Shown piece by piece: positions 4,660 through 25,502 of a DNA stretch of 64,000 nucleotides; positions within the stretch are counted from its first letter, which is position 1; the number at the start of each line of letters is the position of its first letter. This DNA is from an uncultured Prolixibacteraceae bacterium (GTDB lineage Bacteria; Bacteroidota; Bacteroidia; Bacteroidales; FEN-979): the NCBI GenBank assembly GCA_964616825.1, contig CAZTSX010000010.1:525-64524 (forward strand), in the 5' to 3' direction. A program made the translations under genes and the position numbers. A model generated the notes under the pieces. That model was not told the origin of the DNA. It did not search any database and saw only the letters and a program-made list of their open reading frames with translations.

Positions 4660-4676
4660 TATGAATTATTATAACA

Positions 4677-7600
4677 TTATTCTTTCCGGAGTGTTTGGAT
4701 CAGATCCCTTTTAAAAAGGAGTTGGACCGGGATCAGGATCCACACCGCTCCGCTTATCCATATCATCCCCAGTACCACCACGAGAAATCCTCCCGGCATC
4801 TGGTAGGCCGGTGAGATCAGAGAGGGAAGTATTCCCGCTACCGCTCCGATAATTCCCAGGACCATCCCGGCGAGAAGAATCAGAAGATATTCGATCATCA
4901 GCATTTTGCGGATGAAGTTCTTTCGAAATCCAATAGCCATATAGAGCGCCAGCTCACTGGTTCGTTCGAGGTTGTTACGCCAGAGGATGATGCCAAAACC
5001 AACCGTTCCGATCAGCACACCCAGTGCACCGAGGAGCATGAAGACCGACAGATAGGTGTTCTCTACGGAGTTGAATTCAGCCAGGCGTTCGGAGGCCGGA
5101 ACTGCCACCAGTCCATAGTCCACAAACAGCTCTTCAAGCCGGTTTGTGATCTCCTTTCGATGGTCAAATGGCCCCTCCACCAGCATGATCCGGGTTCCAC
5201 TGATAGAGGGGAACCGGTTTTTTAACAAGCTGTCGGAAACCAGGATATGTCCCTGGAAAATGGAGTTCGCCAATCCTCCCATCAGTTTTACCTGCAATAC
5301 CCTGCCTGCTTCATCAAGGTACCGGAGGGTATCGCCAACCGTTTTCCGCAATCCCCAGGTAATGACCGACTGATCCGCGAAGGCCGGGATCACGCCTGGT
5401 GAAAGCTCCTGGCTAAGCGTCAGCCATGGATGTTCCGGGTCTACTTCAGGGAGGAGATTCTCAAAGTTGAATGCGCCCAATGTATCAAAATTTCTTCCCG
5501 GGATCCCCAGCATCATGGGTTGCGTAACCTGGTTCAGGTTCAGGCAGCTGGCGTCATTGCCATCCAGCCGGTGCAATTGAAGATACCGGAGATCCTGCAA
5601 CAGGAGCTCATCGTCCAGCGCAAAATAGGCTTTCCCTGAAGTGGTGTTCAGGTCGTACAACAGGGGTATCGTCGTTTCGGCCCACAGGAGAAAACCTCCT
5701 GTTCCAGATTGGCGGTCTCTCTCGGTTCCAAAGAATGTTTTTCGGTTGGCTCCGGTGATGATGACAGTAAATGTCCCCAGGGCTAATAAAGATATCGCAG
5801 CCATACTCCTTCCCCGCTTCATGGATCCGAGCCTTACTATCATGGGCAACAAACCTGTATGGCCGGTAACATGTCTCTTTGATCGCCAGACAAGGAACAC
5901 ATAAACAAGAGCGATCCCTCCGCCCATCATCAGTCCACCAGCAGTGAGGTATAAGCCGGCATCAGGGACCATTAAGTCTGCCAGCAAAACAACCAGCAGC
6001 ACAATGGAGATGATCACAAGCATGATCCCGGTTCCCATCCATGCCTTTTTTTTCCGCTGAAGCCTACGTCCGGGAAGTCGTGGCGTCTCCTTCACCAGGC
6101 CGGTAACAGGTCGCCGGAGTTGTCTTCTCAGGGTTAAAAAGAGAACACATCCCGCCAGAATAAATCCTACAGCAGCTCCGGCAGCCAGAGAGGGAAGATT
6201 CACCTCCATCCGGAGCATCGAGGTTCTCACAGCATCCTGCCATAGTGTGTTTAGCCCTAAGAGGATAAGCTTATTATATAGAATTCCTGCGATGGCTCCA
6301 AGGATCACACCCGGAATTGCCACCAGGAGGGCTTCGGAAAAGAGGATCCGCATGATCAGCCATTTCCGGAATCCGAGCCCGGCTAACACCCCTGTTTCCG
6401 ACATCCTTGCTCTGGCATGAAGAGAGAATAGCAGTGCTGTGAGCAGGAGGGAAGAGGCAAGGAGAAAAAAGCTGAGACTCAGGAAGAGGCCTCCGAAATC
6501 AGTGGAATTCGCAGCTGCCTGTTGTCCCTGTTCCCTGACATGCTGAAAGACAAACCGGTGCCAGGAGGGATTTATCGCTGTCATAATGAGGGAGTCAACG
6601 GATGCCTGATTCCGGATGCCGTTGCCACATTGCGCTCGCAATGACAATGATGCCGGATTAGAAATGAAGCGGAAGGCTGTGACCGTTCCGAATGGATTAT
6701 CCCAGAGTTTCTCCCCATCTTCCAGGGTGATGAACGCTTTCGGGGTTCCTTTGAATGTATTCCAGTAGGCTTCATCCTTATCACGGATCCGATCCAGGTT
6801 CACCGGCGCTCCTGTTTCCCAGTCCCTGCAGTTACCGGCGCCGCTCATACCGGGAAAATCGGGCATCATTGTTTTGCCATCCGGAATGGCCTGCAGGGGA
6901 ATGATACCGGAGACTGTGAATCCTGCCTCTATTTCATTCAATCTCCTCAGCGGGCCCATAACATAATAGGTCATGTATAGTGAGTCTCCCGGCCTGACAC
7001 CCAGATCGGTAGCGAGCCAGTCGGTGACCAAGATCTCTCCGGGTGATAATGGCATCGGTAAAATTCCTTCATCCACGGCTGCCACAAACGAATAGGGTGT
7101 CTCTTCCCCGTTGGAAGTAAGGGTGTTGGCCAGGTAGGTAAAGAGGGGCAGGGCATCTGGAAGAGCAGTCCGGATGGCATTGGCAGTGAGATCGTCGAAG
7201 AAGATCCTGTCTGTGGTTATCCGGGATAATCCGCTTTCATCAAGTAGATTAATCTTGATTCCGGCATCTGCCATCTGCCAGGTTGACTCAAGGGCTTGAT
7301 CCAGTTTGTCTGCTGTCAGTTCATCGTTCTCTTCTGCGGGTATCAGCAACAGATTGGCAGATCCCGGGAGGCCGACCCGGCCGGCGAGCTGATCCATCAA
7401 GACAAACGCATTGTAAGGAGCCCGTTGATTGCTTTTCAGGCTGAACCTTCCCATTACCTCATTTCCTGCAATAGCTATAACCGTTAGCCGGATGGATGCT
7501 GCAGGCGTTTCATCAGCCACGAATGGCGCATTTTGAGGCACATTTCCCGGTTGCGGCAGACGAATCAATAGGGGATCTCCTGGTTCAAGAGCCAGACGTG

Positions 7601-8015
7601 ATGCCACGTTTTCACTGATAATCACTTCGTTCGCCTTAGGCAGTACCGGAGATGCTTTCCATAAAGAGGAAAAGCTGTTGTCGACTCCCACCACCTGTAT
7701 ATCCTGTAATCGATTGCCTGTCATGACATTGACCCCAATACCTGTCAACTGCATTACCGGCACCACAGGTTGCTCCAGTTCACGGGAGAGGTCAGCAGAA
7801 AGCGCTGACCTGAAATAGCGATCGCCCGGTTGCATCGCCCATTGTGTATCGCCCAATCTCAGTTCGGCCAGTCTTCCCAACGAACCTCTCACCGAATCCC
7901 CTACCAGTAGAGCTCCGGTCAGCACCGCTGTACTGACTATCACCCCAGCCAAAATAGCCAGGTAGGGCCACCGGTAAAAAATTACATTCCGGAAGATCAG
8001 CTTACCAATACTCAT
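4677..8015 (-). CDS. Large ABC transporter permease, MacB/FtsX/LolE type with duplicated FtsX domains
   Basis: 1112 aa. N-terminal TM with ALLVGDSVRGSL, two clusters of TM helices with R..E.G.L.G.GF and E.ALY.AIGF motifs and large periplasmic loops; overlaps the ABC ATPase by 4 bp. Confidence 0.88.
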   Translation of the reverse strand: MSIGKLIFRNVIFYRWPYLAILAGVIVSTAVLTGALLVGDSVRGSLGRLAELRLGDTQWAMQPGDRYFRSALSADLSRELEQPVVPVMQLTGIGVNVMTGNRLQDIQVVGVDNSFSSLWKASPVLPKANEVIISENVASRLALEPGDPLLIRLPQPGNVPQNAPFVADETPAASIRLTVIAIAGNEVMGRFSLKSNQRAPYNAFVLMDQLAGRVGLPGSANLLLIPAEENDELTADKLDQALESTWQMADAGIKINLLDESGLSRITTDRIFFDDLTANAIRTALPDALPLFTYLANTLTSNGEETPYSFVAAVDEGILPMPLSPGEILVTDWLATDLGVRPGDSLYMTYYVMGPLRRLNEIEAGFTVSGIIPLQAIPDGKTMMPDFPGMSGAGNCRDWETGAPVNLDRIRDKDEAYWNTFKGTPKAFITLEDGEKLWDNPFGTVTAFRFISNPASLSLRAQCGNGIRNQASVDSLIMTAINPSWHRFVFQHVREQGQQAAANSTDFGGLFLSLSFFLLASSLLLTALLFSLHARARMSETGVLAGLGFRKWLIMRILFSEALLVAIPGVILGAIAGILYNKLILLGLNTLWQDAVRTSMLRMEVNLPSLAAGAAVGFILAGCVLFLTLRRQLRRPVTGLVKETPRLPGRRLQRKKKAWMGTGIMLVIISIVLLVVLLADLMVPDAGLYLTAGGLMMGGGIALVYVFLVWRSKRHVTGHTGLLPMIVRLGSMKRGRSMAAISLLALGTFTVIITGANRKTFFGTERDRQSGTGGFLLWAETTIPLLYDLNTTSGKAYFALDDELLLQDLRYLQLHRLDGNDASCLNLNQVTQPMMLGIPGRNFDTLGAFNFENLLPEVDPEHPWLTLSQELSPGVIPAFADQSVITWGLRKTVGDTLRYLDEAGRVLQVKLMGGLANSIFQGHILVSDSLLKNRFPSISGTRIMLVEGPFDHRKEITNRLEELFVDYGLVAVPASERLAEFNSVENTYLSVFMLLGALGVLIGTVGFGIILWRNNLERTSELALYMAIGFRKNFIRKMLMIEYLLILLAGMVLGIIGAVAGILPSLISPAYQMPGGFLVVVLGMIWISGAVWILIPVQLLFKRDLIQTLRKE

Positions 8016-8683
8016 GGTTGGTCAATTTTTTCGAGCCTGCCTGAGTGGAGTTTATAAATGACTTTCATTCGCCTGGCTATCTCCATCGAGTGGGTAACGA
8101 TTACCATCCCCATCTCCTCTTCTCTGTTTAATTCTCCAAGTAGTATCCCAAGGGAGGCGGTATTCACCTCATCTAGTGAACCTGTAGGTTCATCAGCCAG
8201 GAGGAGCCCCGGATTATTGATCAGGGCTCTCACTACAGCGGCACGCTGGCACTCACCTACTGACAGTTCGCCGGGAAGGTGTTTCACACGATCGTTCAAA
8301 CCAACTCTGTCAAGGAACTTGTAAGCTCTCTGTTCGGCCTTTTTCACGACAAGTTTATCCTTTACAGGAAGCACTGGAAGAAGAGTATTTTCCAGCAATG
8401 TAAGCTGGGGGAGCAGGTAATGAAGCTGAAACACAAAACCGATAAATTGATTCCTGATTCCGGCTAATTGATTATCATCCAGCTTGTCAACTGCTTTACC
8501 ATTAAGAATGACCCGTCCGGAGGTGGGGCGGTCAAGTGTTCCCAGGATATTCAGCAACGTACTTTTCCCGGATCCTGAGGGGCCGACGATCGCGATTGAA
8601 TCTCCACGATGAATGGTCAGGGAGATCTCTTTCAGTACGGGGTGATCGTATTGTTTGGATACGTTTTGAAACTCTGCCAGCAT
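8012..8683 (-). CDS. ABC transporter ATP-binding protein (LolD/MacB type)
   Basis: Walker A GPSGSGKS, Q-loop FVFQ, signature LSVGECQR, Walker B LLLADEPTG, H-loop VTH. Confidence 0.93.
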   Translation of the reverse strand: MLAEFQNVSKQYDHPVLKEISLTIHRGDSIAIVGPSGSGKSTLLNILGTLDRPTSGRVILNGKAVDKLDDNQLAGIRNQFIGFVFQLHYLLPQLTLLENTLLPVLPVKDKLVVKKAEQRAYKFLDRVGLNDRVKHLPGELSVGECQRAAVVRALINNPGLLLADEPTGSLDEVNTASLGILLGELNREEEMGMVIVTHSMEIARRMKVIYKLHSGRLEKIDQP

Positions 8684-8687
8684 AATA

Positions 8688-9983
8688 TTATTGTTTTTTG
8701 TTCAGGATCTGTTGATATATTTCTACCATCTTCCGGGTGAGGTTCCTACAATTAAACTGCCTTCTAACAGCTTTGATTCCTTCAGTACTCATCTGCTCAA
8801 TTTGTTCAGCAGAACCCAGCACATCTGAAAGTTTTGCTGCCAGGGCAGAAGAGGTATTTGGCCGGTAAACCACGCCACCGCCGGTGGCTTCTATGATCTC
8901 AGGAAATGCACCCAATGCAGGTTGAACCAGGGGAACTCCCGAGGCCAGTGCTTCGAGCTGGTAGAGCCCGAATGCTTCTCCTTTCAGCACCGGAACAGAC
9001 AGCAGTGTGATCTTCCGGAAAAAGTCGCTGAGTTGGTCCTGCCGAAAATCATGCATGATCTCCACCTGGCCGGAGAGATTAGCTTGCTTCAGTTTCTGCA
9101 TCTGCTTGTTGATAAAGGGCTTGTCGTCACCAGTCATCCCCCCGGTAGCATAGAGTCGCAATGGGGCAAACGAATTATTCTGTTTCAATTCAATAAATGC
9201 ATCGATGAGCAATTCAAATCCATTCTCTTCATTCATCCGGGAAAGATATCCGATGGCAGGAGGATCGGTGGCCAGCCGGGTAGGCTCATAGGCATCGGCA
9301 TTTACACCAATATAGACAACATGGAGTTTTTCATCTGGGATCTTCATCCGTTGCTGCATCACCCCTGCATAAAAGTGGCTGACTGCAATAAATCCATCCA
9401 CATCCTCTCCTTTCTGAGCCATCAACTCCCAGATACGTTTCCGGAACGATTCATGCATGGCATCCACCCAAACATCTTCATCCTGCAGAGAGAAAATCAC
9501 CGGAGTTTTCACCTCTTCCTTGATTCGTTTCGCTAATCCAAGAAGCAATGCATTCGAAAGATGCACTACGTCGGGTTTTTCCTTTTTGAGAAAGTCAACC
9601 AGCTCTTCAAGTTCTTGGTGTTGGTTTCCTTCACTTCCCAAAAGCATCGATTCGGTCATCTCCTCGAGTCCTGTTGCCCTCGTAGAACCTGCTTTGTGCG
9701 CTGCATAGCTGAGTATGGCTTTGGAGTTCAGGAACCGTTCCATAAATCCCGGCATGCTTCTTAACCAGGGATAGTTCTGCTTCAGGTAAAGGATTACTGC
9801 GCCGTAAAAAACCGGGACTTCGTCAGGTTTGGTTTGTCCGTTCAACGTTAATGGCAGGTACATAGGAACTGTGAGTGCATCGTGCCCCTCATTGCGAAGG
9901 GATTGCACCAGGGCACTGTCGCGAAGGCAATTCCCGCAATAAAATGTTCCTCCAAAACCCGGTACGATCTGGATAATTTTCAT
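8688..9983 (-). CDS. Glycosyltransferase family 4 (GT-B) with N-terminal CxxC
   Basis: EAFGLYQLEALASG (EX7E) motif and GT-B layout. Start placed at MKIIQIVPG (9983), giving an ATGA overlap with the upstream gene; the ORF-track extension to 10085 overlaps that gene. Confidence 0.85.
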   Translation of the reverse strand: MKIIQIVPGFGGTFYCGNCLRDSALVQSLRNEGHDALTVPMYLPLTLNGQTKPDEVPVFYGAVILYLKQNYPWLRSMPGFMERFLNSKAILSYAAHKAGSTRATGLEEMTESMLLGSEGNQHQELEELVDFLKKEKPDVVHLSNALLLGLAKRIKEEVKTPVIFSLQDEDVWVDAMHESFRKRIWELMAQKGEDVDGFIAVSHFYAGVMQQRMKIPDEKLHVVYIGVNADAYEPTRLATDPPAIGYLSRMNEENGFELLIDAFIELKQNNSFAPLRLYATGGMTGDDKPFINKQMQKLKQANLSGQVEIMHDFRQDQLSDFFRKITLLSVPVLKGEAFGLYQLEALASGVPLVQPALGAFPEIIEATGGGVVYRPNTSSALAAKLSDVLGSAEQIEQMSTEGIKAVRRQFNCRNLTRKMVEIYQQILNKKQ

Positions 9984-11158
9984 GGTCCGAATGCATATAA
10001 AGTTCCATCGTGTGCTCCTACGAGGATCATCCCGGAGGTAACTGCCGGTGTTGCTGTGATCTGGCTTCCGATTTCGTAAACCCAAACCTTTTTTCCACTA
10101 TCTAATTCCAGCAGGTGGAGCCTGCCATCGGAGGAGGCAACTACCACCAGGTTTTCGGCAATGACCGGAGAGGCATCTACTTTTCCCAACGCTTTGTATT
10201 TCCAGAGCAGCTCTCCTGTCTCAGCCTGGTAACAAAAGAGGTACCGGTTCTGGGATCCGATCACTACCCGATCCCCCTGAATAGCCGGTGAGGAGAGAAA
10301 AGGACCTCCTCCTCCCGTTTTCCATTGTATCTTTTTTTGTTTCAGGTCGGCACAATAGAACTCTCCGTCGTAGTTTCCAAACCAGGCTTTATCTCCGCGG
10401 GTCGCTGCCGATGAGGCGATGTAGGTTCCCAGGTCAATCGTGTCATCTGCCATTCCTGTTATCGTGTTTACCAGGTGCAGGTATCCGTCACAACCACCAA
10501 AAACAGCTATCTCCCCGCTGATGGCAGCTGCTCCGTTTATGAAGTTGTTTGATTCGTATTTCCACAATTCCGCCCCTGTGGTGGCATCTACCGCATGGAG
10601 GTTATAATCATAGCTCCCGGTCAATATCTCTTTCCGTTTTTTGTCGGCCGACCATGCCCAGTTGGAGGAGCCCGATATTTGCCCCTCTGTGGTGTATTTC
10701 CATTTTCGTTTTCCCGATTCAGCATCCAGGGCCCATAGGACACCTTCGAGTGTCCCTACGTAAATAGTCTGATCCAGATAGAGTGGAGCCGCTTCCACAG
10801 ATGTTCCCGCGTTGAATTGCCATTGCAACTTTCCATTAAGAGAGAGGGCATAGATAAATCCGTCGTCGGATCCAAAACAGATCAGTCCATCGCAAATCAC
10901 CGGGGAGGATTTGATGGCGCTATTGGCATGAAAGGTCCACAGAAGTTTCAGTGGTGGTTGTATCGAAACCGGCGACGTACCAGTAAGCTGTGGATCTCCC
11001 CTGAACGAAGGCCAACAGTCCGCGTTTTTGGTCTGAGCGAGACCTGCTCCGGCTGCGATAATATTCAGTAATAAAACACAGACTTGTACCGCAAAGGCGC
11101 TAAGCCGTAGAGCACGCCAATTATACCAAAAATTAACTGTTATTTCGTTTAATCTCAT
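9980..11158 (-). CDS. PQQ-binding-like (BamB-type) beta-propeller protein, exported
   Basis: Signal-like N-terminus, WPSFRG motif, repeated G...W docking repeats and SSP motifs. Start uncertain (ATG 11158 chosen; the ORF-track GTG at 11185 lies in a repeat array). Confidence 0.8.
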   Translation of the reverse strand: MRLNEITVNFWYNWRALRLSAFAVQVCVLLLNIIAAGAGLAQTKNADCWPSFRGDPQLTGTSPVSIQPPLKLLWTFHANSAIKSSPVICDGLICFGSDDGFIYALSLNGKLQWQFNAGTSVEAAPLYLDQTIYVGTLEGVLWALDAESGKRKWKYTTEGQISGSSNWAWSADKKRKEILTGSYDYNLHAVDATTGAELWKYESNNFINGAAAISGEIAVFGGCDGYLHLVNTITGMADDTIDLGTYIASSAATRGDKAWFGNYDGEFYCADLKQKKIQWKTGGGGPFLSSPAIQGDRVVIGSQNRYLFCYQAETGELLWKYKALGKVDASPVIAENLVVVASSDGRLHLLELDSGKKVWVYEIGSQITATPAVTSGMILVGAHDGTLYAFGP

Positions 11159-11181
11159 CACATTATTCCTTAATACAATAC

Positions 11182-11248
11182 TCACTTATTCACCATTTCA
11201 CCACCTCACCATTACTCACCAACTCACCAGTTCACCAGTTCACTAGTT
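11182..11248. repeat. Imperfect 8-bp tandem array (TCACCA core) containing the stop codon of the upstream Fe-S flavoprotein gene
   Basis: TCACCA-type cores at 11182, 11190, 11198, 11206, 11216, 11224, 11232 and 11240; TGG TGA at the end of 11224..12801 is one unit. Confidence 0.85.
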
Positions 11249-12801: not shown

Positions 12802-12804
12802 GGG

Positions 12805-15162: not shown

Positions 15163-15239
15163 GCTGATTATATTCTTTTTCTTCTTTTAACCAATGGAAA
15201 GCAGATGACACGGATTTAAATCAGTGTTCAATTTTATCT

Positions 15240-17069: not shown

Positions 17070-17086
17070 AACTCAAAGGGGCCTTA

Positions 17087-18349: not shown

Positions 18350-18364
18350 GCCGGATTAATCCTC

Positions 18365-18952
18365 CTATTTGATGTCTAAGTTTTTCTGTCCGAATCCCTT
18401 CAGAAGGTATGGTTGATCTGCCGGTATCCGCGAATATGCTTCTGACGGACAGTTGCGGGCAACGGAACATTCGTTGCAGTTGTCACACCTGTCTTGCCTT
18501 ACCTGCAGCTGTAGTGAGCCATTTCCGAAGGCACCACATCCTTTAACGCATTTTCCGCATCCGATACAGATCTCCTCATCAATTGTATATTCAAAAAATG
18601 GATCCTCAATAAATGTGCGTTTGATTGCTTTAGTTGGACAAAGCTGGTTTTCAGCCCCTGTATTGAGTGTTTTGGTATCAGGGAGGAAATAGCCACCACA
18701 GAGATCACAATAACCGCACATAGCATAGACATGGACACATTTAACCGCCGATGGAGTCTTGATGCAGCTGGTGGCACAACGGCCACACTGGGTGCATTTG
18801 GTGGGATCAAGCTGCCAGACATATTCACTGGATCCTGCTTTCTTTGCTGCCAGTACTGCAATTCCGCCGATGCTGATCAGCAATCCGGCCTGAGCTCCGG
18901 TTTGGAAGAATTTGCGCCGGTTGATCCGTTTCTCCTCTCCCTTGCCATCCAT
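18365..18952 (-). CDS. Tat-exported polyferredoxin (NapG/MauM/NrfC-like, about four 4Fe-4S)
   Basis: NRRKFF twin-arginine motif plus hydrophobic stretch; CTQCGRCATSC, CGYCDLC, LCP, CIGCGKCVKGC, CDNCNEC..CP. Start placed at ATG 18952, just after the upstream stop. Confidence 0.82.
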   Translation of the reverse strand: MDGKGEEKRINRRKFFQTGAQAGLLISIGGIAVLAAKKAGSSEYVWQLDPTKCTQCGRCATSCIKTPSAVKCVHVYAMCGYCDLCGGYFLPDTKTLNTGAENQLCPTKAIKRTFIEDPFFEYTIDEEICIGCGKCVKGCGAFGNGSLQLQVRQDRCDNCNECSVARNCPSEAYSRIPADQPYLLKGFGQKNLDIK

Positions 18953-18953
18953 A

Positions 18954-19199
18954 TTATTGAGTCTCCTGTTTTTGTTGTTCATATTTCCGGTAAGATTTGG
19001 CTGCCGGTAATCCACATTGTTCTGTTTTCCCACAGAGGGTACATGTAAAGTCAAGGGTACATGCCTCCGCAGGTTCTTCTTTTAAAAGCAGGTATCCGCC
19101 CGTGACAGCTAATCCGGTTCCAATGGCTCCCCGCATCAGCAGGGAGAAGAACTTACGCCTGGATTGCTTCACACCCTTATTACCTGGTCTATCTTTCAT
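18954..19199 (-). CDS. Small twin-arginine, Cys4 protein (C-x5-C-x2-C-x5-C)
   Basis: 81 aa; SRRKFF plus TM helix, then CTLDFTCTLCGKTEQC; fills the gap between two operon genes exactly. Confidence 0.72.
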   Translation of the reverse strand: MKDRPGNKGVKQSRRKFFSLLMRGAIGTGLAVTGGYLLLKEEPAEACTLDFTCTLCGKTEQCGLPAAKSYRKYEQQKQETQ

Positions 19200-20175
19200 T
19201 GCTATCCTCTCCTTTTTTAATGAAAATCCTGATTTGATTCCGCCAGGGGTCGAGGACCAGGATCCTCTCCTCTGAATCTACTGCCAGGTCAAGTCCTCTC
19301 GTTCCCTGGTCAAACTGATCGGGTGCAGCTACCAGGCATTTGAACTCTCCCGATGGATGAAAGACTTTCACATGTTCAATTCCCTTTTCACTGGTTACGA
19401 ACGAACCATCAGAAAGCATGGCAAAATTTGAGGGATTACAACATCCGCAAAAGCCTTCCACTCCCGTGGAGGTCTCACCCCAGGTGGAGATCAATGAGCC
19501 ATCGGGACGGAATGCCTCAAACAGGTGTCGTCCGGAGTTGACCACCCACAGTTCGTCATCGCGGCCGATTCCCAGGTCAAAATATGGACTGGGGATCACA
19601 AATCTAGGAATCCCTTTCAGGGAATCCTTTTTTCCGATCAGGTTCAGTAATGTCCCATCACGGTCATAGTGGTAAACAATCTTTTTGCCGGCATCGGCGA
19701 CAAAGATATCGGTTCCGTTTGTGGCTATACTGGTCAGAACAGATGCATCACTCTCCGGTTTCCACCGGTTGATGATCTCTCCTTCCGGATTCATGATCTC
19801 AATGTGGTCAATCATACCCAGCAGGAGGTTCCCATTCGGCGCAACCGCAATACAATATGCTGTATCAGGAAAAGGGAGTTCCGATATTTTCTCTCCGTCA
19901 TGGCTATAGATCTCTACTCCGTTTGCACCAGCTACATAGATCCGATTATCAGTATCTGCGGCTATCCCGTAGATCTCTGATAATCCGGCTGGAAAATGCT
20001 TTATTTCGCGGTATTCGATAAGCGATGTATCACTTTTCCGAAGTTCATTCAATCCTAAATCAAATGGATTATCGCTGGCACCTGATTCAGAGTAAAAGAG
20101 ATCAACCACCAGGTATCCGATTCCTGCTATCAGGAGGATCAGGGCGGTAATAATGATTAATCGTTGTTTCATCAT
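19189..20175 (-). CDS. NHL-repeat beta-propeller protein, membrane-anchored or exported
   Basis: N-terminal hydrophobic anchor; NHL-like repeats (GIAAD, IFVADAG, LAVDSEERILVLDP..QIRIF); FCGCCNP motif. Start at MMKQRL (20175) gives an ATGA overlap. Confidence 0.8.
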   Translation of the reverse strand: MMKQRLIIITALILLIAGIGYLVVDLFYSESGASDNPFDLGLNELRKSDTSLIEYREIKHFPAGLSEIYGIAADTDNRIYVAGANGVEIYSHDGEKISELPFPDTAYCIAVAPNGNLLLGMIDHIEIMNPEGEIINRWKPESDASVLTSIATNGTDIFVADAGKKIVYHYDRDGTLLNLIGKKDSLKGIPRFVIPSPYFDLGIGRDDELWVVNSGRHLFEAFRPDGSLISTWGETSTGVEGFCGCCNPSNFAMLSDGSFVTSEKGIEHVKVFHPSGEFKCLVAAPDQFDQGTRGLDLAVDSEERILVLDPWRNQIRIFIKKGEDSNER

Positions 20176-21608
20176 TCTGCTTTGATGTTTATGCAAACAA
20201 GTTGTTTTGAATCCCTCATCAGCAGGTACCCTCCGGTAATCGCAATCGGTCCCCACGAATCCTGTCCGTCAATGATTTGAGCACGGTCGAGTATGGTAAA
20301 GCGATTTGTTGAAAGTTTCGCAATAGTCATCTCGCCATCGTCATTAAGGATGAAGAATTTACCATCGGCGATGATGTAAGGCCCCATGCCAAACCGGTCT
20401 GTTTTTCCGCTCCTCATCACCACTTCCGTGCAATCGTCGGGGTGAAAACAGACAAATTCATTCCGTAATCCCCCGGCATCTTTTGGCATAATGCCAAAGA
20501 GGTGTCCATTGGAGTAGATCGGGGTTTGTTGCTCAGAAGCCAATCCTTTAGCTGGTTTATATTTCTGAATGATCCCGGCTGAGAATTTTCCGTTTTGTTC
20601 GTTCACTTGCATCACAACTCCACCATATCCGTACCCGGCTGTGAGGAAGATCCTTCCCTGATCCATGATCACCGGCGATGGAGCCACAACCGTTGGAGAG
20701 AACTCCAGGCTCTCCCATAAGATCTCGCCCTGATCCGCTCCTTCGGCAGAGATCCCGCAGACACCTCCTACCGCAGGATAGATGTACATCTTTTTCCCGT
20801 TGAACTGCATGGGCATCACCGATGCATGAGACATCTTCCAACCGTTGGGATTTGGTGTTTTCCAGGCAATGTTCCCTGTTTTGCAATCCACTCCGATCAT
20901 AAGGGATGATCCTCCCACGGCTATGATAGCCGTGTCGTCAACGATCAACGGGCACTGGCCTGTATACCAGAACGGAATTTCTGTTCCGAACTCCTTTTCA
21001 AGGTCTATTCCCCATAGAAAGTCGCCGGATTGCCTGTCCACACACATCACCTGGCACCGTGGACCGATGGTGACCACATATTTGTCGGTTACAGCGGGGA
21101 TTGTCCGGGATAGCCCGTGGTTTCGTTTCAGGTGGACACGATACGAACGACGCCATAACTCCTCTCCTGTTTCCAGGGAGAGACAACGTAAAGCATCCTG
21201 TTTTCTGACTTCATCGTAATCGAGCAGGTAGATCAGACCATCGTATACTGCCGGTGCGGCGTGACCTTCACCCAATTCCAGCGTCCAGAGGATATCCGGA
21301 CCGGAAGGTCCCCATGAGTCAATCAAATGAATTTGTTCTTTGCTGATGTTATCGAGATCGGCTCCACGGAATCGTGGCCATCGGGTACCCGGAACAGGTT
21401 CAACATCACCACCAAATGAGAAAAACTCACCGATATTGACAATTTCCAGTGCCCGGGAAGAATCTACGGTCCGGTTATCCATGCCAGGCGCCGCTATCGA
21501 CAACGATTTCACCGGGTTGTGTGAAAACCACCAGGAAACTACTCCAACAGCAAGAACAACAACTACATACGGAATGTATTTAACTATGTGCTTTTTTGTA
21601 ATTGTCAC
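20172..21608 (-). CDS. PQQ-binding-like beta-propeller protein with N-terminal TM anchor
   Basis: WPRFRG motif, GHAAP, W-docking repeats, SWGP..GG.L.MRD C-terminus; GTG start. Confidence 0.82.
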   Translation of the reverse strand: MTITKKHIVKYIPYVVVVLAVGVVSWWFSHNPVKSLSIAAPGMDNRTVDSSRALEIVNIGEFFSFGGDVEPVPGTRWPRFRGADLDNISKEQIHLIDSWGPSGPDILWTLELGEGHAAPAVYDGLIYLLDYDEVRKQDALRCLSLETGEELWRRSYRVHLKRNHGLSRTIPAVTDKYVVTIGPRCQVMCVDRQSGDFLWGIDLEKEFGTEIPFWYTGQCPLIVDDTAIIAVGGSSLMIGVDCKTGNIAWKTPNPNGWKMSHASVMPMQFNGKKMYIYPAVGGVCGISAEGADQGEILWESLEFSPTVVAPSPVIMDQGRIFLTAGYGYGGVVMQVNEQNGKFSAGIIQKYKPAKGLASEQQTPIYSNGHLFGIMPKDAGGLRNEFVCFHPDDCTEVVMRSGKTDRFGMGPYIIADGKFFILNDDGEMTIAKLSTNRFTILDRAQIIDGQDSWGPIAITGGYLLMRDSKQLVCINIKAE

Positions 21609-21612
21609 CTCG

Positions 21613-21620
21613 CAAAGATA
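21613..21620 (-). promoter_or_regulatory. Bacteroidota sigma-A -7 element (TATCTTTG) upstream of the 21608 gene
   Basis: The reverse complement of 21613-21620 matches TAnnTTTG, in the only sizeable gap (about 200 bp) in the cluster. Confidence 0.55.
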
Positions 21621-21812
21621 ACTGCTTTTGCTTAGTTTTCTTTGATATTATAGGCCATTAGTGTATCGCCATCAATTAAAAACGATTCTGAAAATCCATA
21701 AAATACCTGGCTTCCGTGAAGGTCTTCAAGCATATCCAATGACCATACTATCTCCCTGTTGCCGGCATGAAAACAGGTAATTTTCCCGGGCCCTGTCCTA
21801 GCCAACTTTTCA

Positions 21813-23111
21813 TCAATCCGGTTCTCGGATATTGAATGCCATCAGGACTTCACCATGCCGGACATATAAAATACCGTCGTTGATCACGGGATGCGACCAG
21901 TGGGGGCCGTTCCCTTCTGTAATTTGAAAGCTACTCAGGGGTTCAAATGTTGCCGGATCCGTATTTACCAGAGCCAGGTTCCCATTCTTCTCTTCATAGC
22001 AGTAGAGCATACCATCGGCGAAGATGATGGATCCTTTATTGTGCCATTCTGTTTCATAGGCGGGCTCTCCTGTCTCCCAGTCGATGCAGCACCAGTTCCC
22101 GCTTCGGTTATTGATCCAGTTTGCCCCATAGATATATCCATCCACCAGGACAACTCCCCCATGATGGGTGTCAAGCGTATGATCTGTCCACAGCAGCTCA
22201 ATCTCTGATCCATCTTCAGAGATGGCGAACATAGCGCCTACGTGGTTGTATCCGCTTGTAATATACAATTTGCCATCACGGTACAGGGGTGTGTTGATGT
22301 TGATCTTTGGTGAGTTGATCCATACCTCTTTGCATGCATCGGAATCTGTTTCGTAATAATTATGTTTCCAGATAATTGTTCCATCACTGGCATCCACTCC
22401 GATCAGGTAATTGGCCAGGAAGGTCACAATGATTTTCTTTCCTCCACGTTCGATCAGCAAGGGTGATACATAACCGCTGGTATCCGTGATGCTCTTCGAA
22501 GCCCAGATGGTCTCGCCGGTTATTTTATCCATTGCTACCATGGTTGTTTCTGTGCCGGCAGGGGTATAGATCACTTTATCGTCTGTGATCAGCAGGGATT
22601 CACAAATGCCCCAAACTCCCCATGCGGCATTGAATTTTTTTTCTGCATCGAAGGTCCAGTTAACAGAACCGTTGCTTGCATCTATACATGCGATGGTACC
22701 AGCTCCGCTCAGGACATAGATGCGATCTTCCTCGATTGTGGGGGTTGTTCGCGTTTCAGGGAAGGATTTCTGCCAGGATCTGCCAAAAGGTACTTTCCGG
22801 AGGATTTCGCCCTGCTTTGTCAATTTGATTAAATAATCGGTTGAATCCTGCATGCCCGTAACAAAGATCGCATCATCTGCAATGGCTGTAGAGGAGAAAC
22901 CTTTACCAATACCATCGACCGACCAGATAAGTGCAGGTCCTTCATCGGGCCACGTAGAGAGCAGGTTGGTATCTGTATAGATTCCATTTCGTTCAGGCCC
23001 ACGCCATTGAGCTACGTTCTGGGTGTTGACTGTATATCCAATAAAAAGTAATACAATCAGAAAAGTAATCGGCTTGCAGGTGAGTATCCATTTATACCTT
23101 TGCTGTTTCAT
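21813..23111 (-). CDS. PQQ-binding-like beta-propeller protein, exported
   Basis: Signal-like N-terminus, AQWRGP motif, W-docking repeats, HWSHPVI..G.LYVRHG C-terminus; start at MKQQRY chosen to avoid overlap. Confidence 0.82.
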   Translation of the reverse strand: MKQQRYKWILTCKPITFLIVLLFIGYTVNTQNVAQWRGPERNGIYTDTNLLSTWPDEGPALIWSVDGIGKGFSSTAIADDAIFVTGMQDSTDYLIKLTKQGEILRKVPFGRSWQKSFPETRTTPTIEEDRIYVLSGAGTIACIDASNGSVNWTFDAEKKFNAAWGVWGICESLLITDDKVIYTPAGTETTMVAMDKITGETIWASKSITDTSGYVSPLLIERGGKKIIVTFLANYLIGVDASDGTIIWKHNYYETDSDACKEVWINSPKININTPLYRDGKLYITSGYNHVGAMFAISEDGSEIELLWTDHTLDTHHGGVVLVDGYIYGANWINNRSGNWCCIDWETGEPAYETEWHNKGSIIFADGMLYCYEEKNGNLALVNTDPATFEPLSSFQITEGNGPHWSHPVINDGILYVRHGEVLMAFNIREPD

Positions 23112-23118
23112 CGATGAG

Positions 23119-24336
23119 TTATCTTTTTTGGATATCATATACCATCAGGGCATCTCCGTGTCGGATAAAGAGCTTTCCATCAGCAATTACCGGGTGTGCC
23201 CAATGGTGGTCCTCACCATAGGGAACCTCAAATGAACTCACTTTATTATACCCGGAGGTTGTTGGTTTCACCAGTACAACTTCACCACTGTCATTATAAC
23301 AATAAAGCATTCCATCGGCATAGATGACCACCCCTCTGCCCATCATATCCACTTCACCGATATCCAGTCCGGTTTTCCAGTCAACACAGAACCACCCTTC
23401 ATTCGAATCGTCTGATCCATAGATCCGATCTCCAAGCACCACAAATCCGCCCATCCGGTTGTCGATTGAAATATTACGCCACATCTCCTGCTTGACTGAG
23501 CCATCGGCTGAAAGTTTTAGCTGGATTCCTCCTTTACCGTACCCGGATACACAGTAAAGATAACCATCCCTGTAATAGGGTGTGTTGGCATGGACCGACC
23601 ATCTGTTGGTTTGTGGATGTGACCAGAGCAGTTTCCCGTCATTCGCGTCAATACCCATAATGGAATTAGCTGTCTGGGTTACAAGGAGTTTTCGCTTTGG
23701 CAGTTTTACCAGCAGAGGTGAGCAATAGGCACTTACTTCTGATTTTCCCTCACCAGACCAGATCAGTTCGCCGGTATTTCGGTTAAGTGCAATCACGTTA
23801 TTTTTTTTACCTCCCGGAGCGCAGAAGAGGATATCTCCATCGATCAGCAGATTTTCAGTGACACCCCATTTGATATTACGTCCGTCGTAATCCTTAAACA
23901 GGTCAACCTCCCAGAGTTTTTTCCCGTTTGCAGCATCCATACAAAAGATCTTGCCGAAAGCACTCATCATATATAATTTACCATCTACATATAGTGGAGT
24001 GCTTCGGGTCCCTGGCCAGCTTGCGACCCAATCAGGACCATAAGGAACTTTCCACTGCAGTTCTCCTTCCGGTGAAAAACAAAAGATATATCCTGTCTCC
24101 TCCAGTGTTCCGGCAGTATAAATCTTGTCTTCCGTTACTACTGCAGAGGCATGGCCCTGACCCAGGCCATCAATATGCCAAAGAAGGGTGGGGCCTGCTT
24201 CAGGCCAAGATTTCAGGAGGCCGGTTGCCGGGTATTTTCCATTGCGGTGAGGGCCGCGCCACTGGACAATTTCCTGTGTCATCAACTCTCCGCTGAAGAT
24301 CAGTATACAAAGGATCAATGAAAAAATTCTGCTCAT
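23119..24336 (-). CDS. PQQ-binding-like beta-propeller protein, exported (tandem paralog of the 21813 gene)
   Basis: Signal peptide, VQWRGP, RSTP, HWAHPVI..G.LFIRHG; collinear similarity to the neighbouring gene. Confidence 0.84.
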   Translation of the reverse strand: MSRIFSLILCILIFSGELMTQEIVQWRGPHRNGKYPATGLLKSWPEAGPTLLWHIDGLGQGHASAVVTEDKIYTAGTLEETGYIFCFSPEGELQWKVPYGPDWVASWPGTRSTPLYVDGKLYMMSAFGKIFCMDAANGKKLWEVDLFKDYDGRNIKWGVTENLLIDGDILFCAPGGKKNNVIALNRNTGELIWSGEGKSEVSAYCSPLLVKLPKRKLLVTQTANSIMGIDANDGKLLWSHPQTNRWSVHANTPYYRDGYLYCVSGYGKGGIQLKLSADGSVKQEMWRNISIDNRMGGFVVLGDRIYGSDDSNEGWFCVDWKTGLDIGEVDMMGRGVVIYADGMLYCYNDSGEVVLVKPTTSGYNKVSSFEVPYGEDHHWAHPVIADGKLFIRHGDALMVYDIQKR

Positions 24337-24360
24337 ATTGAATTGTATTTATGGTTGCTT

Positions 24361-25059
24361 TTATTTGTTCTTTTTTGAGAAACTGATTTGGTCCAGAGGC
24401 AGGGTATATCCAACATCTATCCCAACGCAAATCGTTTTCCCCACGACGTAAGAATCCCGCAAGACATCGCTCAATCCCTGGAAGTAATTTATTTTCGCAA
24501 AGAAGGTTCCGGGACCTAAACGATAGGTTGCTCCTGCCTCCACAGCAATGGAGAAATCAACCACGTTGAACCGGGCAAACGGAGTCATTGAATCGCGGGC
24601 CCGGTAAGGGGCCTGTTCGGCGATATTCAGGTATCCTACAGCAAAATCGACCTTCGGGCCAACACCGGCAAAGATTCCGAATTTACTCTCACGGAATTGA
24701 TAATGGTATTTCAACAGGAATGACCATCCTATGTAATGCTGGTTGGCTTTATAGGAGAAATAATCGTTCAGTGTATCAACGAAAGTGATATTCGAGATTC
24801 CCATCTCCTGATAATGCAATCCTGTTGAGATATAAAACTGGCTCCCAATATCCAAATCGATTGAGAGGGAAGCGTGAAATGAGCTTCTGTTCGGTTTTAG
24901 AGTGACGTAATCGAGGAGATAATAGTTATAATCAGGGCGCTTATATTCAGCTACGCTTGTATGGGTGAACAGGTATCCTGCTGCAAGACTGAAGCTATTC
25001 TGGCCCTGAAGGGTTCCCAGCGAAAAAACCATGATCAACACAAATAGGAGTTTCTTCAT
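24361..25059 (-). CDS. Outer-membrane beta-barrel protein (porin/PorT-like)
   Basis: Signal peptide MKKLLFV..., alternating aromatic beta-strand pattern, about 230 aa. Confidence 0.68.
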   Translation of the reverse strand: MKKLLFVLIMVFSLGTLQGQNSFSLAAGYLFTHTSVAEYKRPDYNYYLLDYVTLKPNRSSFHASLSIDLDIGSQFYISTGLHYQEMGISNITFVDTLNDYFSYKANQHYIGWSFLLKYHYQFRESKFGIFAGVGPKVDFAVGYLNIAEQAPYRARDSMTPFARFNVVDFSIAVEAGATYRLGPGTFFAKINYFQGLSDVLRDSYVVGKTICVGIDVGYTLPLDQISFSKKNK

Positions 25060-25083
25060 TTCATTAAAATTAAAGTCCGAATG

Positions 25084-25091
25084 CAAAAATA
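25084..25091 (-). promoter_or_regulatory. Bacteroidota -7 element (TATTTTTG) for the minus-strand cluster
   Basis: TAnnTTTG match about 25 nt upstream of the barrel gene ATG. Confidence 0.5.
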
Positions 25092-25229: not shown

Positions 25230-25502
25230 ATGATACATGAACCAGCAGCACCCGTTGAAAAAGATAATGCGATCCAAAGAAAAACCAGATTAGGTGTCAT
25301 ATTATTTATAATATACACCCTGATTTATTCCGGTTTCGTTGTTATTGGATTAACAGATCCTGAGTTGATGGGAGTAGACATTATTGGAGGTCAGAATCTG
25401 GCAATTATTTATGGATTTGGTTTAATCTTATTAGCCATAATAATGGGATTCTTCTACAACTACTTTTGCACCAAATTTGAGAACGAAATGAATAAAAACT
25501 AA
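25230..25502 (+). CDS. DUF485 (YjcH-like) small membrane protein, ActP partner
   Basis: 90 aa, two TM helices, directly upstream of an SSS permease (conserved pairing). Confidence 0.85.
   Translation: MIHEPAAPVEKDNAIQRKTRLGVILFIIYTLIYSGFVVIGLTDPELMGVDIIGGQNLAIIYGFGLILLAIIMGFFYNYFCTKFENEMNKN

Follow-up and report, generated by a model that had tools for sequence, protein, structure and literature searches.

The cluster lies on the minus strand of the window, by which we mean the whole 64,000-nt stretch of DNA that was analysed, and runs from 25086 to 4677. It comprises 15 co-directional genes, called A to O here, and one gene remnant (Table 1); the preliminary description had counted 14 genes, although its own list sums to 15. 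The tight packing it reported is borne out by the coordinates, intergenic gaps ranging from -20 to +77 nt across the cluster, the remnant region excepted. B and C overlap by 20 nt, E and F by 11 nt, and N and O through an ATGA; D abuts E and L abuts M, and the remaining junctions measure 1–77 nt (77 nt between I and J), apart from the 204 nt between C and D, which contain the remnant. On at least 10 metagenome contigs of identical sequence, gene calls made independently gave the same C, remnant, D, E and F, and also start E at 20175. An alternative start of G is found at 18982, and the probable start of A is the ATG at 25059, an internal ATG of this gene at which the cluster had previously been ended.

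Table 1. Genes and gene remnant of the cluster, in the direction of transcription
Feature	Description	Coordinates	Strand	Evidence
A	Small outer-membrane beta-barrel (OMP_b-brl_2)	24361..25086	-	PF13568, 41 bits
B	Sec-exported 8-blade PQQ_2/BamB-type propeller	23119..24336	-	PF13360, 89 bits
C	Second B-type propeller paralogue	21813..23138	-	PF13360, 81 bits
Remnant	57-aa ORF left by deletion within a third B-type propeller gene	21632..21805	-	
D	N-terminally membrane-anchored 8-blade PQQ_2-type propeller, core component	20172..21608	-	
E	Membrane-anchored 6-blade NHL propeller, core component	19189..20175	-	Pfam NHL
F	81-aa Tat-signal protein, C-x5-C-x2-C-x5-C	18954..19199	-	SRRKFF motif
G	Tat-exported periplasmic polyferredoxin	18365..18952	-	RRKFF motif; four 4Fe-4S motifs
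H	NapH-like polytopic Fe-S membrane protein	17087..18349	-	Pfam Fer4_5
I	Three membrane helices and periplasmic 8-blade propeller	15240..17069	-	PF13360, 116 bits; helix scan
J	Cytoplasmic NuoE-NuoF (BfuC-BfuB) fusion flavoprotein	12805..15162	-	PF01257, PF01512, PF10589, Fer4_21
K	BfuA/NfnA(StnC)-like Fe-S flavoprotein: 2Fe-2S, GltD-like and NuoG-like Fe-S parts	11224..12801	-	
L	Sec-exported ACSF4-type 8-blade propeller	9980..11185	-	PF13570, 205 bits
M	Cytoplasmic GT4 glycosyltransferase	8688..9983	-	PF00534, PF13439
N	LolD/MacB-type ABC ATPase	8012..8683	-	PF00005
O	1112-aa duplicated FtsX-type permease	4677..8015	-	FtsX x2, MacB_PCD

Pfam and NCBIfam assignments confirm all the contents predicted earlier (barrel, propellers, NHL protein, Tat proteins, NapH-like protein, NuoEF fusion, GT4 and ABC system). 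They also bear out the predicted absence of an H-cluster, NiFe or Mo-bisPGD subunit, no hydrogenase, NiFe or molybdopterin domain being present among the cluster proteins. No CxxCH haem motif was detected in these proteins by motif scan, and no catalytic centre was found in them. Twin-arginine motifs occur only in F and G, which are Tat substrates; the propellers have Sec signals or N-terminal anchors, and J, K, M and N have neither a signal peptide nor a membrane helix.

Judged from their sequences, J and K form a pair of the Bfu/Nfn(Stn) type. Pfam assigns to J sites for FMN and NADH and, at the C-terminus, a 2 x [4Fe-4S] domain; the protein matches BfuB over its full length, this domain included, and has as best solved relatives NfnB (9n5u_B, 690 bits; 9bov_B), StnB (8oh5_B) and HydB; 332 of its 785 residues are invariant, all cluster cysteines among them. 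K aligns to residues 5–287 and 455–672 of the 1178 residues of 9bov_A, skipping about 167 residues, and has a single GxGxxG motif. It had been called StnC-like, which is correct for the family, but the NADPH-binding Rossmann domain and the C-terminal, Mo-enzyme-like half of StnC/NfnA are missing. This deletion is common to nearly all lineages; the exceptions are two K variants (L095 and L119) that retain the NADPH domain, which indicates descent from an Nfn-type enzyme. In NfnABC, electrons leave the FAD of NfnA, travel along the Fe-S chain of this subunit and reach first the FMN flavobicluster, then the ferredoxin site (PMC11829005), and Bfu enzymes operate reversibly (PMC9304861, PMC11829005).

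In the membrane protein H, two CX3CP and two 4Fe-4S motifs are both assigned to the cytoplasmic side, while three family-specific invariant cysteines (GCVC and C193) are predicted to face the periplasm; all 15 motif cysteines are invariant, across phyla too. NapH and NosR models match H below their cut-offs, and no solved homologue was found. Identity with Escherichia coli NapH is 23% over the CX3CP region; the latter protein has no cysteine at the position aligned with C193, and the GCVC region is unaligned. NapH-like proteins are viewed as modular transmembrane electron conduits, whose partners include the propeller enzymes ExaA and NirS (PMC8238504). In G, the 16 cysteines of the four cluster motifs are conserved at 98% or more. 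F, whose four cysteines probably hold a small metal or Fe-S centre, is present as a separate gene or as an F-G fusion in the majority of the 78 Bacteroidales loci inspected and in other phyla, and many genomes have it as the N-terminal part of G.

The name PQQ-like given earlier to the propellers holds for their fold but not for an enzymatic activity: B, C, D, I and L were considered as PQQ enzymes and rejected, since none of them, B included, reaches the PQQ-dehydrogenase or BamB threshold. No PQQ, haem or conserved metal site is detectable in D, E, I, B, C or L. B belongs to a paralogue family with one to five copies per locus, the number varying between loci; C is seen in 24 of 64 loci, and the remnant is 76% identical to residues 127–172, and also matches residues 391–406, of an intact 406-aa gene in another locus (L001, 3642–4862). 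D is the most conserved propeller of the set (156 of 478 residues conserved at 95% or more), with a family of 413 clusters (50% identity) at E<1e-30. Its AF2 model (pLDDT 86) has a fold that matches BamB, tetrathionate hydrolase and PQQ dehydrogenases, and for both D and E the structure models give generic propeller matches only. Family conservation reveals no metal site or His-Cys constellation in D, where H116, H164 and H261 are often Tyr or Phe in relatives. D-family domains also serve as the extracytoplasmic portion of a sensor of the BlaR1 type (P0269). In E, a loop G-F-x-G-C-C-N-P is invariant, and its C272-C273 pair, which the AF2 model places in a loop of a canonical NHL fold, is 100% conserved across phyla; when metal-ligand candidates are considered, full conservation is limited to this pair, two histidines reaching 86–89%. 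These vicinal cysteines are the only universally invariant redox-capable periplasmic group besides the Fe-S proteins, although they could be structural or metal ligands rather than redox-active. I is carried by 47 of 47 loci and by most lineages, and is missing from the cluster in a P0315-like lineage.

The four genes L to O travel together, L adjoining the GT4 and ABC genes in Bacteroidales, in Phycisphaerae and in locus L088. M has 156 invariant residues, including C50 and C53, and an invariant N-terminal F-Y-C-G-N-C motif; it is about 41% identical in Phycisphaerae, where O is 36% identical over its full length. N scores 240 bits against the LolD model, whose cut-off is 308, and the helix scan gives O some 10 membrane helices, along with two large domains in the periplasm. 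The outer-membrane barrel A is present at the locus, as had been noted, but it is a peripheral member, found upstream of B in close relatives only (7 of 64 loci).

The preliminary description had made conserved co-occurrence elsewhere the test of its proposal, and the cluster does recur as a unit. We sampled 80 species-level Bacteroidales loci from at least 543 matches, and per-gene counts were limited to loci with enough flanking DNA (denominators 64 or 47). The order B(1–5 copies)-D-E-(F)G-H-I-J-K-L-M-N-O is found in essentially all 80 loci, 12 of which deviate, most only through split or undetected ORFs. Where the flank suffices, D and E are present in 64/64 loci, J and K in 46/47, L in 45/47 and M in 43/47. 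In Phycisphaerae and Sedimentisphaerales the same 12 genes lie together in permuted order, including the GT4, the ABC ATPase and the permease of about 1100 aa, and other lineages, with identities as low as about 35%, still combine D, E, (F)G, H, J and K. Genes flanking the cluster are not conserved between loci. This recurrence is far beyond chance. A near-unchanged operon is present in hundreds of anaerobic Bacteroidota species as well as in Planctomycetota. Those carriers that have a name belong to Bacteroidales, Sedimentisphaerales and Phycisphaerales, groups of fermentative anaerobes; Labilibaculum filiforme is a cultured example. Conservation within the set is highest in J, H and G, and natural fusions (F-G, D-E, and I-D in P0269) indicate physical association of the periplasmic parts. 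The modules do separate in some loci. B, D-E, G and H are present without J/K nearby in L085 and L087, so that the flavoprotein is not always adjacent to the propeller genes; D-E is found with M-L-N-O and without G/H nearby in L088, and D/E-G-H-J-K without M-N-O nearby in L082, L093 and L110. The propellers are thus linked with the ABC/GT4 module no less closely than with the redox module.

It had been proposed that the operon wires cytoplasmic NADH and ferredoxin to periplasmic propellers. The topology fits, and the architecture and co-inheritance of the genes support this proposal; from them we infer an order and a direction of electron transfer. J/K would be the input module, binding NAD(H) at the FMN and probably ferredoxin at the C-terminal clusters of J. 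Since K lacks the NADPH domain, its third substrate is presumably not NADP(H), and may be the next protein of the chain. H is a putative transmembrane wire that would hand electrons on to the polyferredoxin G and its Cys4 appendage F, and the membrane-anchored D, E and I with the soluble B, C and L would form the periplasmic end module. Electrons from NADH and reduced ferredoxin would be confurcated and flow outward through K, H and G/F to E/D, providing fermentative anaerobes with a periplasmic electron sink. The terminal step could be a two-electron chemistry of the thiol/disulfide type at the Cys-Cys pair, in which polysulfide, sulfur or an organic disulfide might for instance be reduced; the cluster has no associated sulfur-metabolism gene. 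Transfer from Fe-S clusters to a disulfide has precedents in ferredoxin:thioredoxin reductase and heterodisulfide reductase. L-M-N-O may be an accessory module that builds, anchors or mechanically services the periplasmic part. The reading that we tentatively favour, with a confidence that stays a little under one half, is therefore a single envelope-spanning, haem-free oxidoreductase, probably a fermentative electron sink, with outward flow, disulfide-type terminal chemistry and L-M-N-O as accessory.

No sequence feature in the cluster fixes the direction of electron flow, and the same complex might work in reverse, the propellers oxidising a periplasmic substrate and passing electrons through G/F and H to J/K, which would bifurcate them to NADH and reduced ferredoxin, as in H2-consuming HydABC. 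The reversibility of Bfu enzymes, the dehydrogenase-like propeller fold and the inward electron transport proposed for NapH-like clusters with the propeller oxidase ExaA (PMC8238504) speak for such a reversal. We consider it unlikely, as ferredoxin-directed bifurcation requires a donor near -400 mV and the cluster contains no hydrogenase, formate dehydrogenase or CO dehydrogenase site. PQQ-type oxidations have a potential far too positive for a ferredoxin-reducing flow, and the propellers fail the PQQ-enzyme thresholds in any case. The cluster could also serve mainly envelope biogenesis or maintenance, a GT4 glycoconjugate or a membrane-anchored protein being handled by the MacB-type ABC system and the propellers, while the Fe-S/flavoprotein chain supplies reducing power or senses redox. 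That L-M-N-O travels with D-E even where G/H are not nearby (L088/L121), that N is LolD/DevA/MacB-like, that BamB-like propellers are typically scaffolds and that a D-family domain is part of a sensor are all consistent with this role. It is nevertheless improbable in our opinion, because many lineages have D/E-G-H-J-K without M-N-O nearby, because the highest conservation falls on J, H and G, and because a flavoprotein pair of 8 to 9 clusters and a five-centre periplasmic wire are a heavy cost for an auxiliary role.

The complex would be NosZ-like if one of D, E and I held a metal or metal-sulfur centre that the ABC system helps to assemble in the periplasm and that reduces a small inorganic molecule. 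The nos clusters offer a formal parallel (propeller enzyme, NapH-type protein, NosGH polyferredoxin, ABC system), the propellers are Sec substrates, so that any cofactor would be inserted in the periplasm, and one lineage adds a TonB-dependent receptor as well as a beta-helix protein that matches NosD faintly. This receptor is however of the siderophore type and confined to that lineage, the conservation patterns of D and E described above do not outline a metal site, and both a cupredoxin domain and a metallochaperone are absent from the cluster, which makes a NosZ-like centre very unlikely. A juxtaposition by chance of independent operons (propellers, Nfn-like transhydrogenase, NapGH-like pair, ABC/GT4 set) is scarcely credible: the gaps at C-D and I-J and the variation of module order between phyla would allow it, but it is contradicted by the co-linearity of 80 loci, the co-inheritance of 12 genes across phyla, the non-conserved flanks and the fusions, and K without its NADPH domain cannot serve as an Nfn subunit.

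The preliminary description knew of no characterised system of this composition, and our literature search likewise found no description of one; several known systems share parts of it. As in the nos clusters (NosZ, NosR or NosGH, NosDFY, NosL), a periplasmic propeller is encoded together with a NapH-type protein, a polyferredoxin and an ABC system, but CuZ/CuA ligands are lacking as well as the cupredoxin domain, the ABC system is of the MacB/FtsX type rather than NosFY, and there is no NosD or NosL in the window. As in the NapGH, MauMN and NosGH pairs, a Tat-exported four-cluster polyferredoxin adjoins a polytopic protein with two CX3CP and two 4Fe-4S motifs. Here, however, the nap, mau and nos catalytic genes are absent, H and G match E. 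coli NapH and NapG locally at only 23–28% identity and stay below the family cut-offs, H has two extra helices in addition to its three extra invariant cysteines, and G is paired with the extra Cys4 protein F. Flavinylated NapH-like systems (NosR, PceC and ExaA/NirS clusters; PMC8238504, Meheust et al., 2021) similarly use a modular NapH-type link between internal electron pools and periplasmic enzymes, some of them 8-blade propellers; our cluster differs in having no FMN-binding domain or ApbE, in its propellers, which are neither ExaA nor NirS, and in that the periplasmic carrier would be an Fe-S protein and the donor a cytoplasmic Bfu-type flavoprotein. The confurcating HydABC hydrogenases share the BfuBC core and, by our proposal, the role of disposing of NADH and reduced ferredoxin in fermenters, but here the H-cluster domain is absent and electrons would exit via the membrane instead of reducing protons. 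Among solved structures, J and K are closest to subunits of HydABC and of the electron-bifurcating transhydrogenases of the Bfu family, NfnABC/StnABC (PDB 9bov, 9n5u, 8oh5). J spans the whole of NfnB/StnB and also contains the NuoE-like NfnC part, and K matches NfnA/StnC in the N-terminal region (2Fe-2S, Fe-S and FAD parts) and in the NuoG-like clusters. The pair differs from these transhydrogenases in that K lacks both the NADPH domain and a C-terminal Mo-enzyme-like domain of 500 aa, that J unites the C and B subunits in one chain, and that membrane and periplasmic partners are encoded alongside.

The segment from 4677 to 25086 of the window contains 15 co-directional genes, all on the minus strand, here lettered A to O in transcription order together with their products; families were assigned with Pfam and NCBIfam, and the features are collected in the table. 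The preliminary description, made by reading the sequence alone, had proposed a 14-gene redox cluster reaching from cytoplasm to periplasm and built on propeller proteins; its composition stands, and the gene count is corrected to 15. Neighbouring genes overlap, abut or are separated by at most 77 nt, except for a 204-nt gap between C and D that holds the propeller remnant. This remnant keeps residues ~127-172 and 391-406 of the parent propeller, which is intact (406 aa) in L001, a locus 97%-related to the window. The gene calls from C through F match on at least 10 independent metagenome contigs carrying identical sequence. Within the cluster, twin-arginine signals are present in F and G only, and none of its genes contains a hydrogenase or molybdopterin domain or a haem c motif.

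Features of the cluster, its neighbours and related loci (L numbers) from other genomes or metagenomes; presence is counted among loci with enough flanking DNA
Feature	Position (strand)	Description	Loci with the gene
Activase ATPase fusion	448-4659 (+)	1403 aa; two BcrAD/BadFG-type activase ATPase domains + DUF2229	
A	24361-25086 (-)	small outer-membrane barrel, first in transcription order	7/64
B, C		Sec-exported PQQ_2-type propellers	
Remnant after C	21632-21805 (-)	57 aa; deletion remnant of a third B-type propeller copy	
D		propeller, N-terminally anchored	64/64
E		NHL propeller, anchored	64/64
F		Tat protein, 81 aa, four Cys	
G		polyferredoxin, Tat	61/64
H		membrane Fe-S protein, NapH-like	
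I		three membrane helices + propeller	47/47
J		NuoE-NuoF fusion + two extra 4Fe-4S motifs	46/47
K		Fe-S flavoprotein, 2Fe-2S/GltD-like/NuoG-like	46/47
L		ACSF4-type propeller	45/47
M	8688-9983 (-)	glycosyltransferase, GT4	43/47
N		ATPase, ABC	
O	4677-8015 (-)	duplicated FtsX permease, 1112 aa	
DUF485/symporter pair	25230-27446 (+)	DUF485 small membrane protein + sodium:solute symporter, ActP-like	
L001	3642-4862	intact counterpart of the remnant	
L095	15708-17774	K homologue	
L082	6564-8687	TonB receptor	
L083	1005-3128	TonB receptor	
L087	3901-8674	TonB receptor/beta-helix region	
L088	1956-6404	TonB receptor/beta-helix region	

Relatives of H number more than 7900 at E<1e-10, and the best 120 are all full-length, from Bacteroidota and at least 65% identical. 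A scan restricted to one genome per species gave at least 543 relatives, of which the best 80 loci were examined, each ORF being assigned to the best-matching window protein. These loci, which include Prolixibacteraceae, Lentimicrobiaceae, Draconibacterium, Rikenellaceae and the isolate Labilibaculum filiforme 59.16B, show everywhere the order B(1-5 copies)-D-E-(F)-G-H-I-J-K-L-M-N-O on one strand. Collinearity is strict in 68 of the 80, and in most of the other 12 an ORF is split or went undetected. The existence of this conserved unit confirms and strengthens what had been observed in the window. A is restricted to close relatives, and no conserved flank was found in Bacteroidales, where the commonest neighbour outside the block occurs in at most 13 loci. 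Because cultured carriers exist, as L. filiforme 59.16B (L080), the role of the cluster is directly testable; a MAG assigned to Draconibacterium orientale also has it. The bin labels of two loci, L066 (Alphaproteobacteria) and L077 (Chlorobiota), are probably wrong; that of L066 is doubted because its gene content is that of the Bacteroidales locus L065, with near-identical identities to the window.

On either side of the cluster in the window, the activase ATPase fusion is convergent with the permease gene and is not a conserved neighbour, and the DUF485/symporter pair, divergent from A, flanks the cluster elsewhere in L005 only. The G+C content of positions 4001-24000 is 0.46-0.52, versus 0.40-0.46 in the remainder of the window, a difference that could be due to the composition of strongly conserved genes or to another history. 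No riboswitch turned up in Rfam scans of the window and of seven loci, promoter and terminator scans gave no signal over background, and no regulator site emerged when k-mers and palindromes were searched in 60 upstream regions.

The D family comprises 413 clusters (50% identity) at E<1e-30, and contexts in other phyla were read from relatives of one of its members, the D-E fusion P0253. In Phycisphaerales (CP070675.1) and Sedimentisphaerales the same 12 genes are found at 35-59% identity in the order L-M-N-O-D-E-F-G-H-I-J-K, that is, with two blocks swapped relative to Bacteroidales, so that the set is co-inherited across phyla. D-E fusions are seen in P0247, P0253, P0272, P0275 and P0315. 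One D-E-fusion lineage carries B, D-E and (F)G together with H, I, J and K, and its variants have B, D-E, (F)G and H only, or C, D-E, M, L, N and O. About 50 further loci of readable length came from a metagenome scan, with one lineage carrying D, E, G, H, J and K without I. The universal core is thus D, E, (F)G, H, J and K; I and L-M-N-O are frequent companions, the copy number of B/C is free, and A is local. Neighbours of distant loci (glycosidases, CotH, GNAT, DinB, PlsY) are unrelated; a siderophore-type TonB-dependent receptor recurs in one lineage only. In that D-E-fusion lineage it lies divergent upstream of the cluster in four of four loci (L082, L083, L087, L088), with a large beta-helix protein, faintly matching NosD in L087, beside it in L087 and L088; receptor and beta-helix protein may hint at an imported substrate.

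J and K resemble the electron-bifurcating flavoenzymes of the Bfu family (BfuABC), which include the Nfn/Stn transhydrogenases and the HydABC hydrogenases. Residues 181-784 of J align full-length with NfnB, StnB and HydB and have the architecture of BfuB, that is, a NuoF-like FMN/NADH/4Fe-4S core, two C-terminal [4Fe-4S] clusters and an N-terminal thioredoxin-like Cys site. Residues 13-155 match PF01257 (167 bits) and correspond to the NuoE-like [2Fe-2S] part of BfuC, fused here to BfuB. Other Pfam matches of J are PF01512, PF10589 and Fer4_21; its closest solved relative is NfnB (9n5u_B, 690 bits), followed by 9bov_B, StnB (8oh5_B) and HydB. Every cluster Cys in J is invariant, as are its FMN and NADH motifs. 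K has Fer2_4 and Fer4_Nqo3 matches together with a His/Cys cluster motif and aligns, like BfuA, with the N-termini of NfnA, HydA and NuoG, its closest solved relatives being the A/C subunits of NfnABC/StnABC (9bov_A, 8oh5_C, 9n5u_A). The alignment skips residues 288-454 of the solved chain while K advances by 20 residues only, and ends near residue 672 of that 1178-aa chain; GxGxxG occurs once in K, which has no molybdopterin Pfam match and lacks the formate-dehydrogenase-like C-terminal domain of NfnA/StnC. Judged from these alignments, the NADPH Rossmann domain and the Mo-enzyme-like domain at the C-terminus have both been lost from K. The deletion is common to Bacteroidales, Phycisphaerae and most other lineages. 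Only the K homologues of L095 and L119 keep an insert of ~133 aa with a second GxGxxG, the NADPH-binding domain, which suggests that K descended from an Nfn-type enzyme; these variants look like intermediates between Nfn-type enzymes and the present system. In NfnABC, electrons pass from NADPH to the FAD of NfnA and through the NfnA Fe-S chain to an FMN/4Fe-4S/2Fe-2S flavobicluster, which hands them on to NAD and to the ferredoxin site (PMC11829005). This NADPH entry point no longer exists in K.

F, G and H are the candidates for an iron-sulfur wire. H has about seven hydrophobic segments in a membrane-helix scan and, like the polytopic protein NapH, two CX3CP and two 4Fe-4S motifs, cytoplasmic by the positive-inside reading. 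The motif Cys are invariant (C141/C145, C229/C233, C257-C267, C406-C416), as are three more, in G-C97-V-C99 and at C193, which the same reading assigns to the periplasmic face; motif and extra Cys are conserved across phyla. E. coli NapH is 23% identical to H over the CX3CP and 4Fe-4S region, where the CX3CP motifs align; it has no Cys at the position aligned with C193, and the GCVC region is unaligned. H scores below the NapH/MauN models (TIGR02163, 52 versus a cut-off of 213 bits; NF007013, 47 versus 234) and, over its membrane part only, below the NosR model (41 bits versus a cut-off of 1000). It has no FMN_bind match, and no related solved structure was found. Neither the window cluster nor the related loci contain napA, napB or napC. 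The four 4Fe-4S motifs of G hold 16 Cys conserved to at least 98%, and G is similar to the polyferredoxin NapG only locally. F is present as a separate Tat protein or as the N-terminus of G in most of 78 Bacteroidales loci, the F-G fusion recurs in the D-E-fusion lineage, and the motif C-x5/6-C-x2-C-x5-C is kept throughout. A small exported protein of this kind could be read as a RiPP precursor or a hitch-hiker signal, a reading rejected because many genomes fuse F to the N-terminus of G and because the four Cys of F are kept.

None of the propellers attains a PQQ-dehydrogenase or BamB cut-off. The PQQ-dehydrogenase model TIGR03075 gives 20-75 bits on them versus a cut-off of 480; PF01011 covers only parts of its 595 positions in B, C, I and L, the shortest matches (40-47 residues) being those of B and C; and the BamB model TIGR03300 gives 24-138 bits versus a cut-off of 285, a likeness of fold only. 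Among the propellers D has the highest conservation (at least 95% at 156 of its 478 residues), and its AF2 model (pLDDT 86) is an 8-blade propeller whose neighbours in a PDB fold search, at 11-16% identity, are BamB, the cofactor-free tetrathionate hydrolase and quinoproteins. E is modelled as a canonical 6-blade NHL propeller, and PDB searches with both models returned only generic propellers (BamB, tetrathionate hydrolase, quinoproteins, TRIM-NHL). Conserved His residues of D (H116, H164, H261) were considered as a metal site, which is unlikely because they are often Tyr or Phe across 210 relatives; nor did the conserved Cys indicate one. In E, the loop G-F-x-G-C-C-N-P contains two vicinal Cys with 100% conservation in everything from Bacteroidales to fusion proteins in other phyla; outside the Fe-S proteins, this pair is the only redox-capable group of the periplasmic module that is universally invariant. 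D is also fused to I behind a BlaR1-type M56 domain (M56 domain-I-D in P0269), and to HEAT repeats and a squalene-hopene-cyclase-like domain, both N-terminal of D; P0269, P0245 and P0250 are the D-family proteins of other lineages in these fusions. Fusion to sensor, cyclase-like and repeat domains suggests that the propellers are able to act as ligand-binding modules.

In the L-M-N-O block, N and O together have the domains PF00005, PF02687 (twice) and PF12704 of a MacB/LolCDE-type (type VII) ABC transporter. N is LolD/MacB/DevA-like below cut-offs (best LolD, 240 versus 308 bits), O, with ~10 helices and two large periplasmic domains, matches the ADOP model only (27 bits versus 622), and N/O could not be identified with LolD, MacB, YbbA or DevA. 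MacB-type transporters act on periplasmic or outer-leaflet substrates. M has an invariant N-terminal P-G-F-G-G-x-F-Y-C-G-N-C-L-R-D (residues 44-56), which to our knowledge is not a usual GT4 feature and may be a metal or redox site; a search of solved structures gave distant GT4 relatives only. Its likeness to BshA/MshA, a possible hint of a low-molecular-weight thiol pathway, was set aside, the scores being generic for GT4 and bshB and bshC being absent. The probable role of L-M-N-O is to build the periplasmic part or to service it mechanically.

We propose that J/K is a Bfu-type module exchanging electrons with NAD(H), and probably also with ferredoxin, whose mid-potential branch would end at H instead of NADP(H). 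H would carry the electrons through the membrane to G and F, whose partners would be the anchored propellers D, E and I; flow would be outward, the periplasmic equivalent of proton reduction by HydABC, and the terminal two-electron site would be the Cys-Cys pair of E, acting on polysulfide, sulfur or disulfide-type substrates. Within the reach of sequence analysis, the interpretation given in the preliminary description is supported. We regard it as likely that the genes form a single system that moves electrons across the membrane. The named carriers belong to Bacteroidales, Sedimentisphaerales and Phycisphaerales, presumably fermentative anaerobes, and for this reason we lean slightly towards the outward direction. 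Ferredoxin:thioredoxin reductase and heterodisulfide reductase, which join Fe-S centres to disulfides, set a precedent for chemistry at the Cys pair of E; our confidence in a thiol/disulfide end chemistry, though it is the one we favour, is low. A tentative proposal, short of probable, is that D-E-I forms a new class of periplasmic redox enzyme that uses neither haem, flavin, PQQ nor a classical metal site and is powered directly by electrons confurcated from NADH and ferredoxin, which reach it across the membrane via the all-iron-sulfur wire H-G-F. Against the mechanism stand the failure of motif, conservation and structure-model searches to find a catalytic centre in the propellers, and the fact that the link of D-E to the ABC/GT4 block is no looser than its link to G-H: in L088, D-E is accompanied by M-L-N-O with no G-H nearby. 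In addition, J/K are not nearby in L085 and L087. Taken together, the cluster looks like an envelope-spanning redox system that is widespread and conserved and has apparently not been described before, in which the electron-transfer modules are new variants of known ones and the terminal module offers candidate chemistry only.

If the proposal is true, the system would be the first of the Bfu type to have its 'third substrate' outside the cytoplasm, and a new branch of the electron-bifurcating family. In anoxic lakes, sediments and groundwater, abundant anaerobic Bacteroidales would share with Phycisphaerae an uncharacterised respiratory or fermentative module through which NADH/ferredoxin pools connect to periplasmic chemistry, with neither quinones nor cytochromes involved. 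It would be a widespread, unrecognised route of electron disposal (or gain) in fermentative Bacteroidota and Planctomycetota, could be an overlooked electron sink in anoxic carbon turnover, and would provide a tractable case of NapH-type transmembrane electron transfer, a question in Nap, Nos and reductive dehalogenase systems.

We found no description of the cluster in open-access papers and bioRxiv preprints, an absence that is no proof. A survey of Bfu enzymes lists membrane-bound variants and mentions neither propellers nor the periplasm (PMC9304861). J and K have the structural features of the Bfu family, but the cluster is not a member of Nfn/Stn, because K lacks the NADPH and C-terminal domains; nor does it belong to Nap or Nos, since H falls under the thresholds, the gene context differs and the FMN-binding domain is missing, or to the PQQ dehydrogenases, BamB or the Lol system. 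NapH-like systems are modular, and some serve the propeller enzymes ExaA and NirS (Meheust et al., PMC8238504). The cluster can be likened to a hybrid, one half like a Bfu enzyme (Nfn/Stn, HydABC) and the other a conduit of the NapGH/NosGH/MauMN type.
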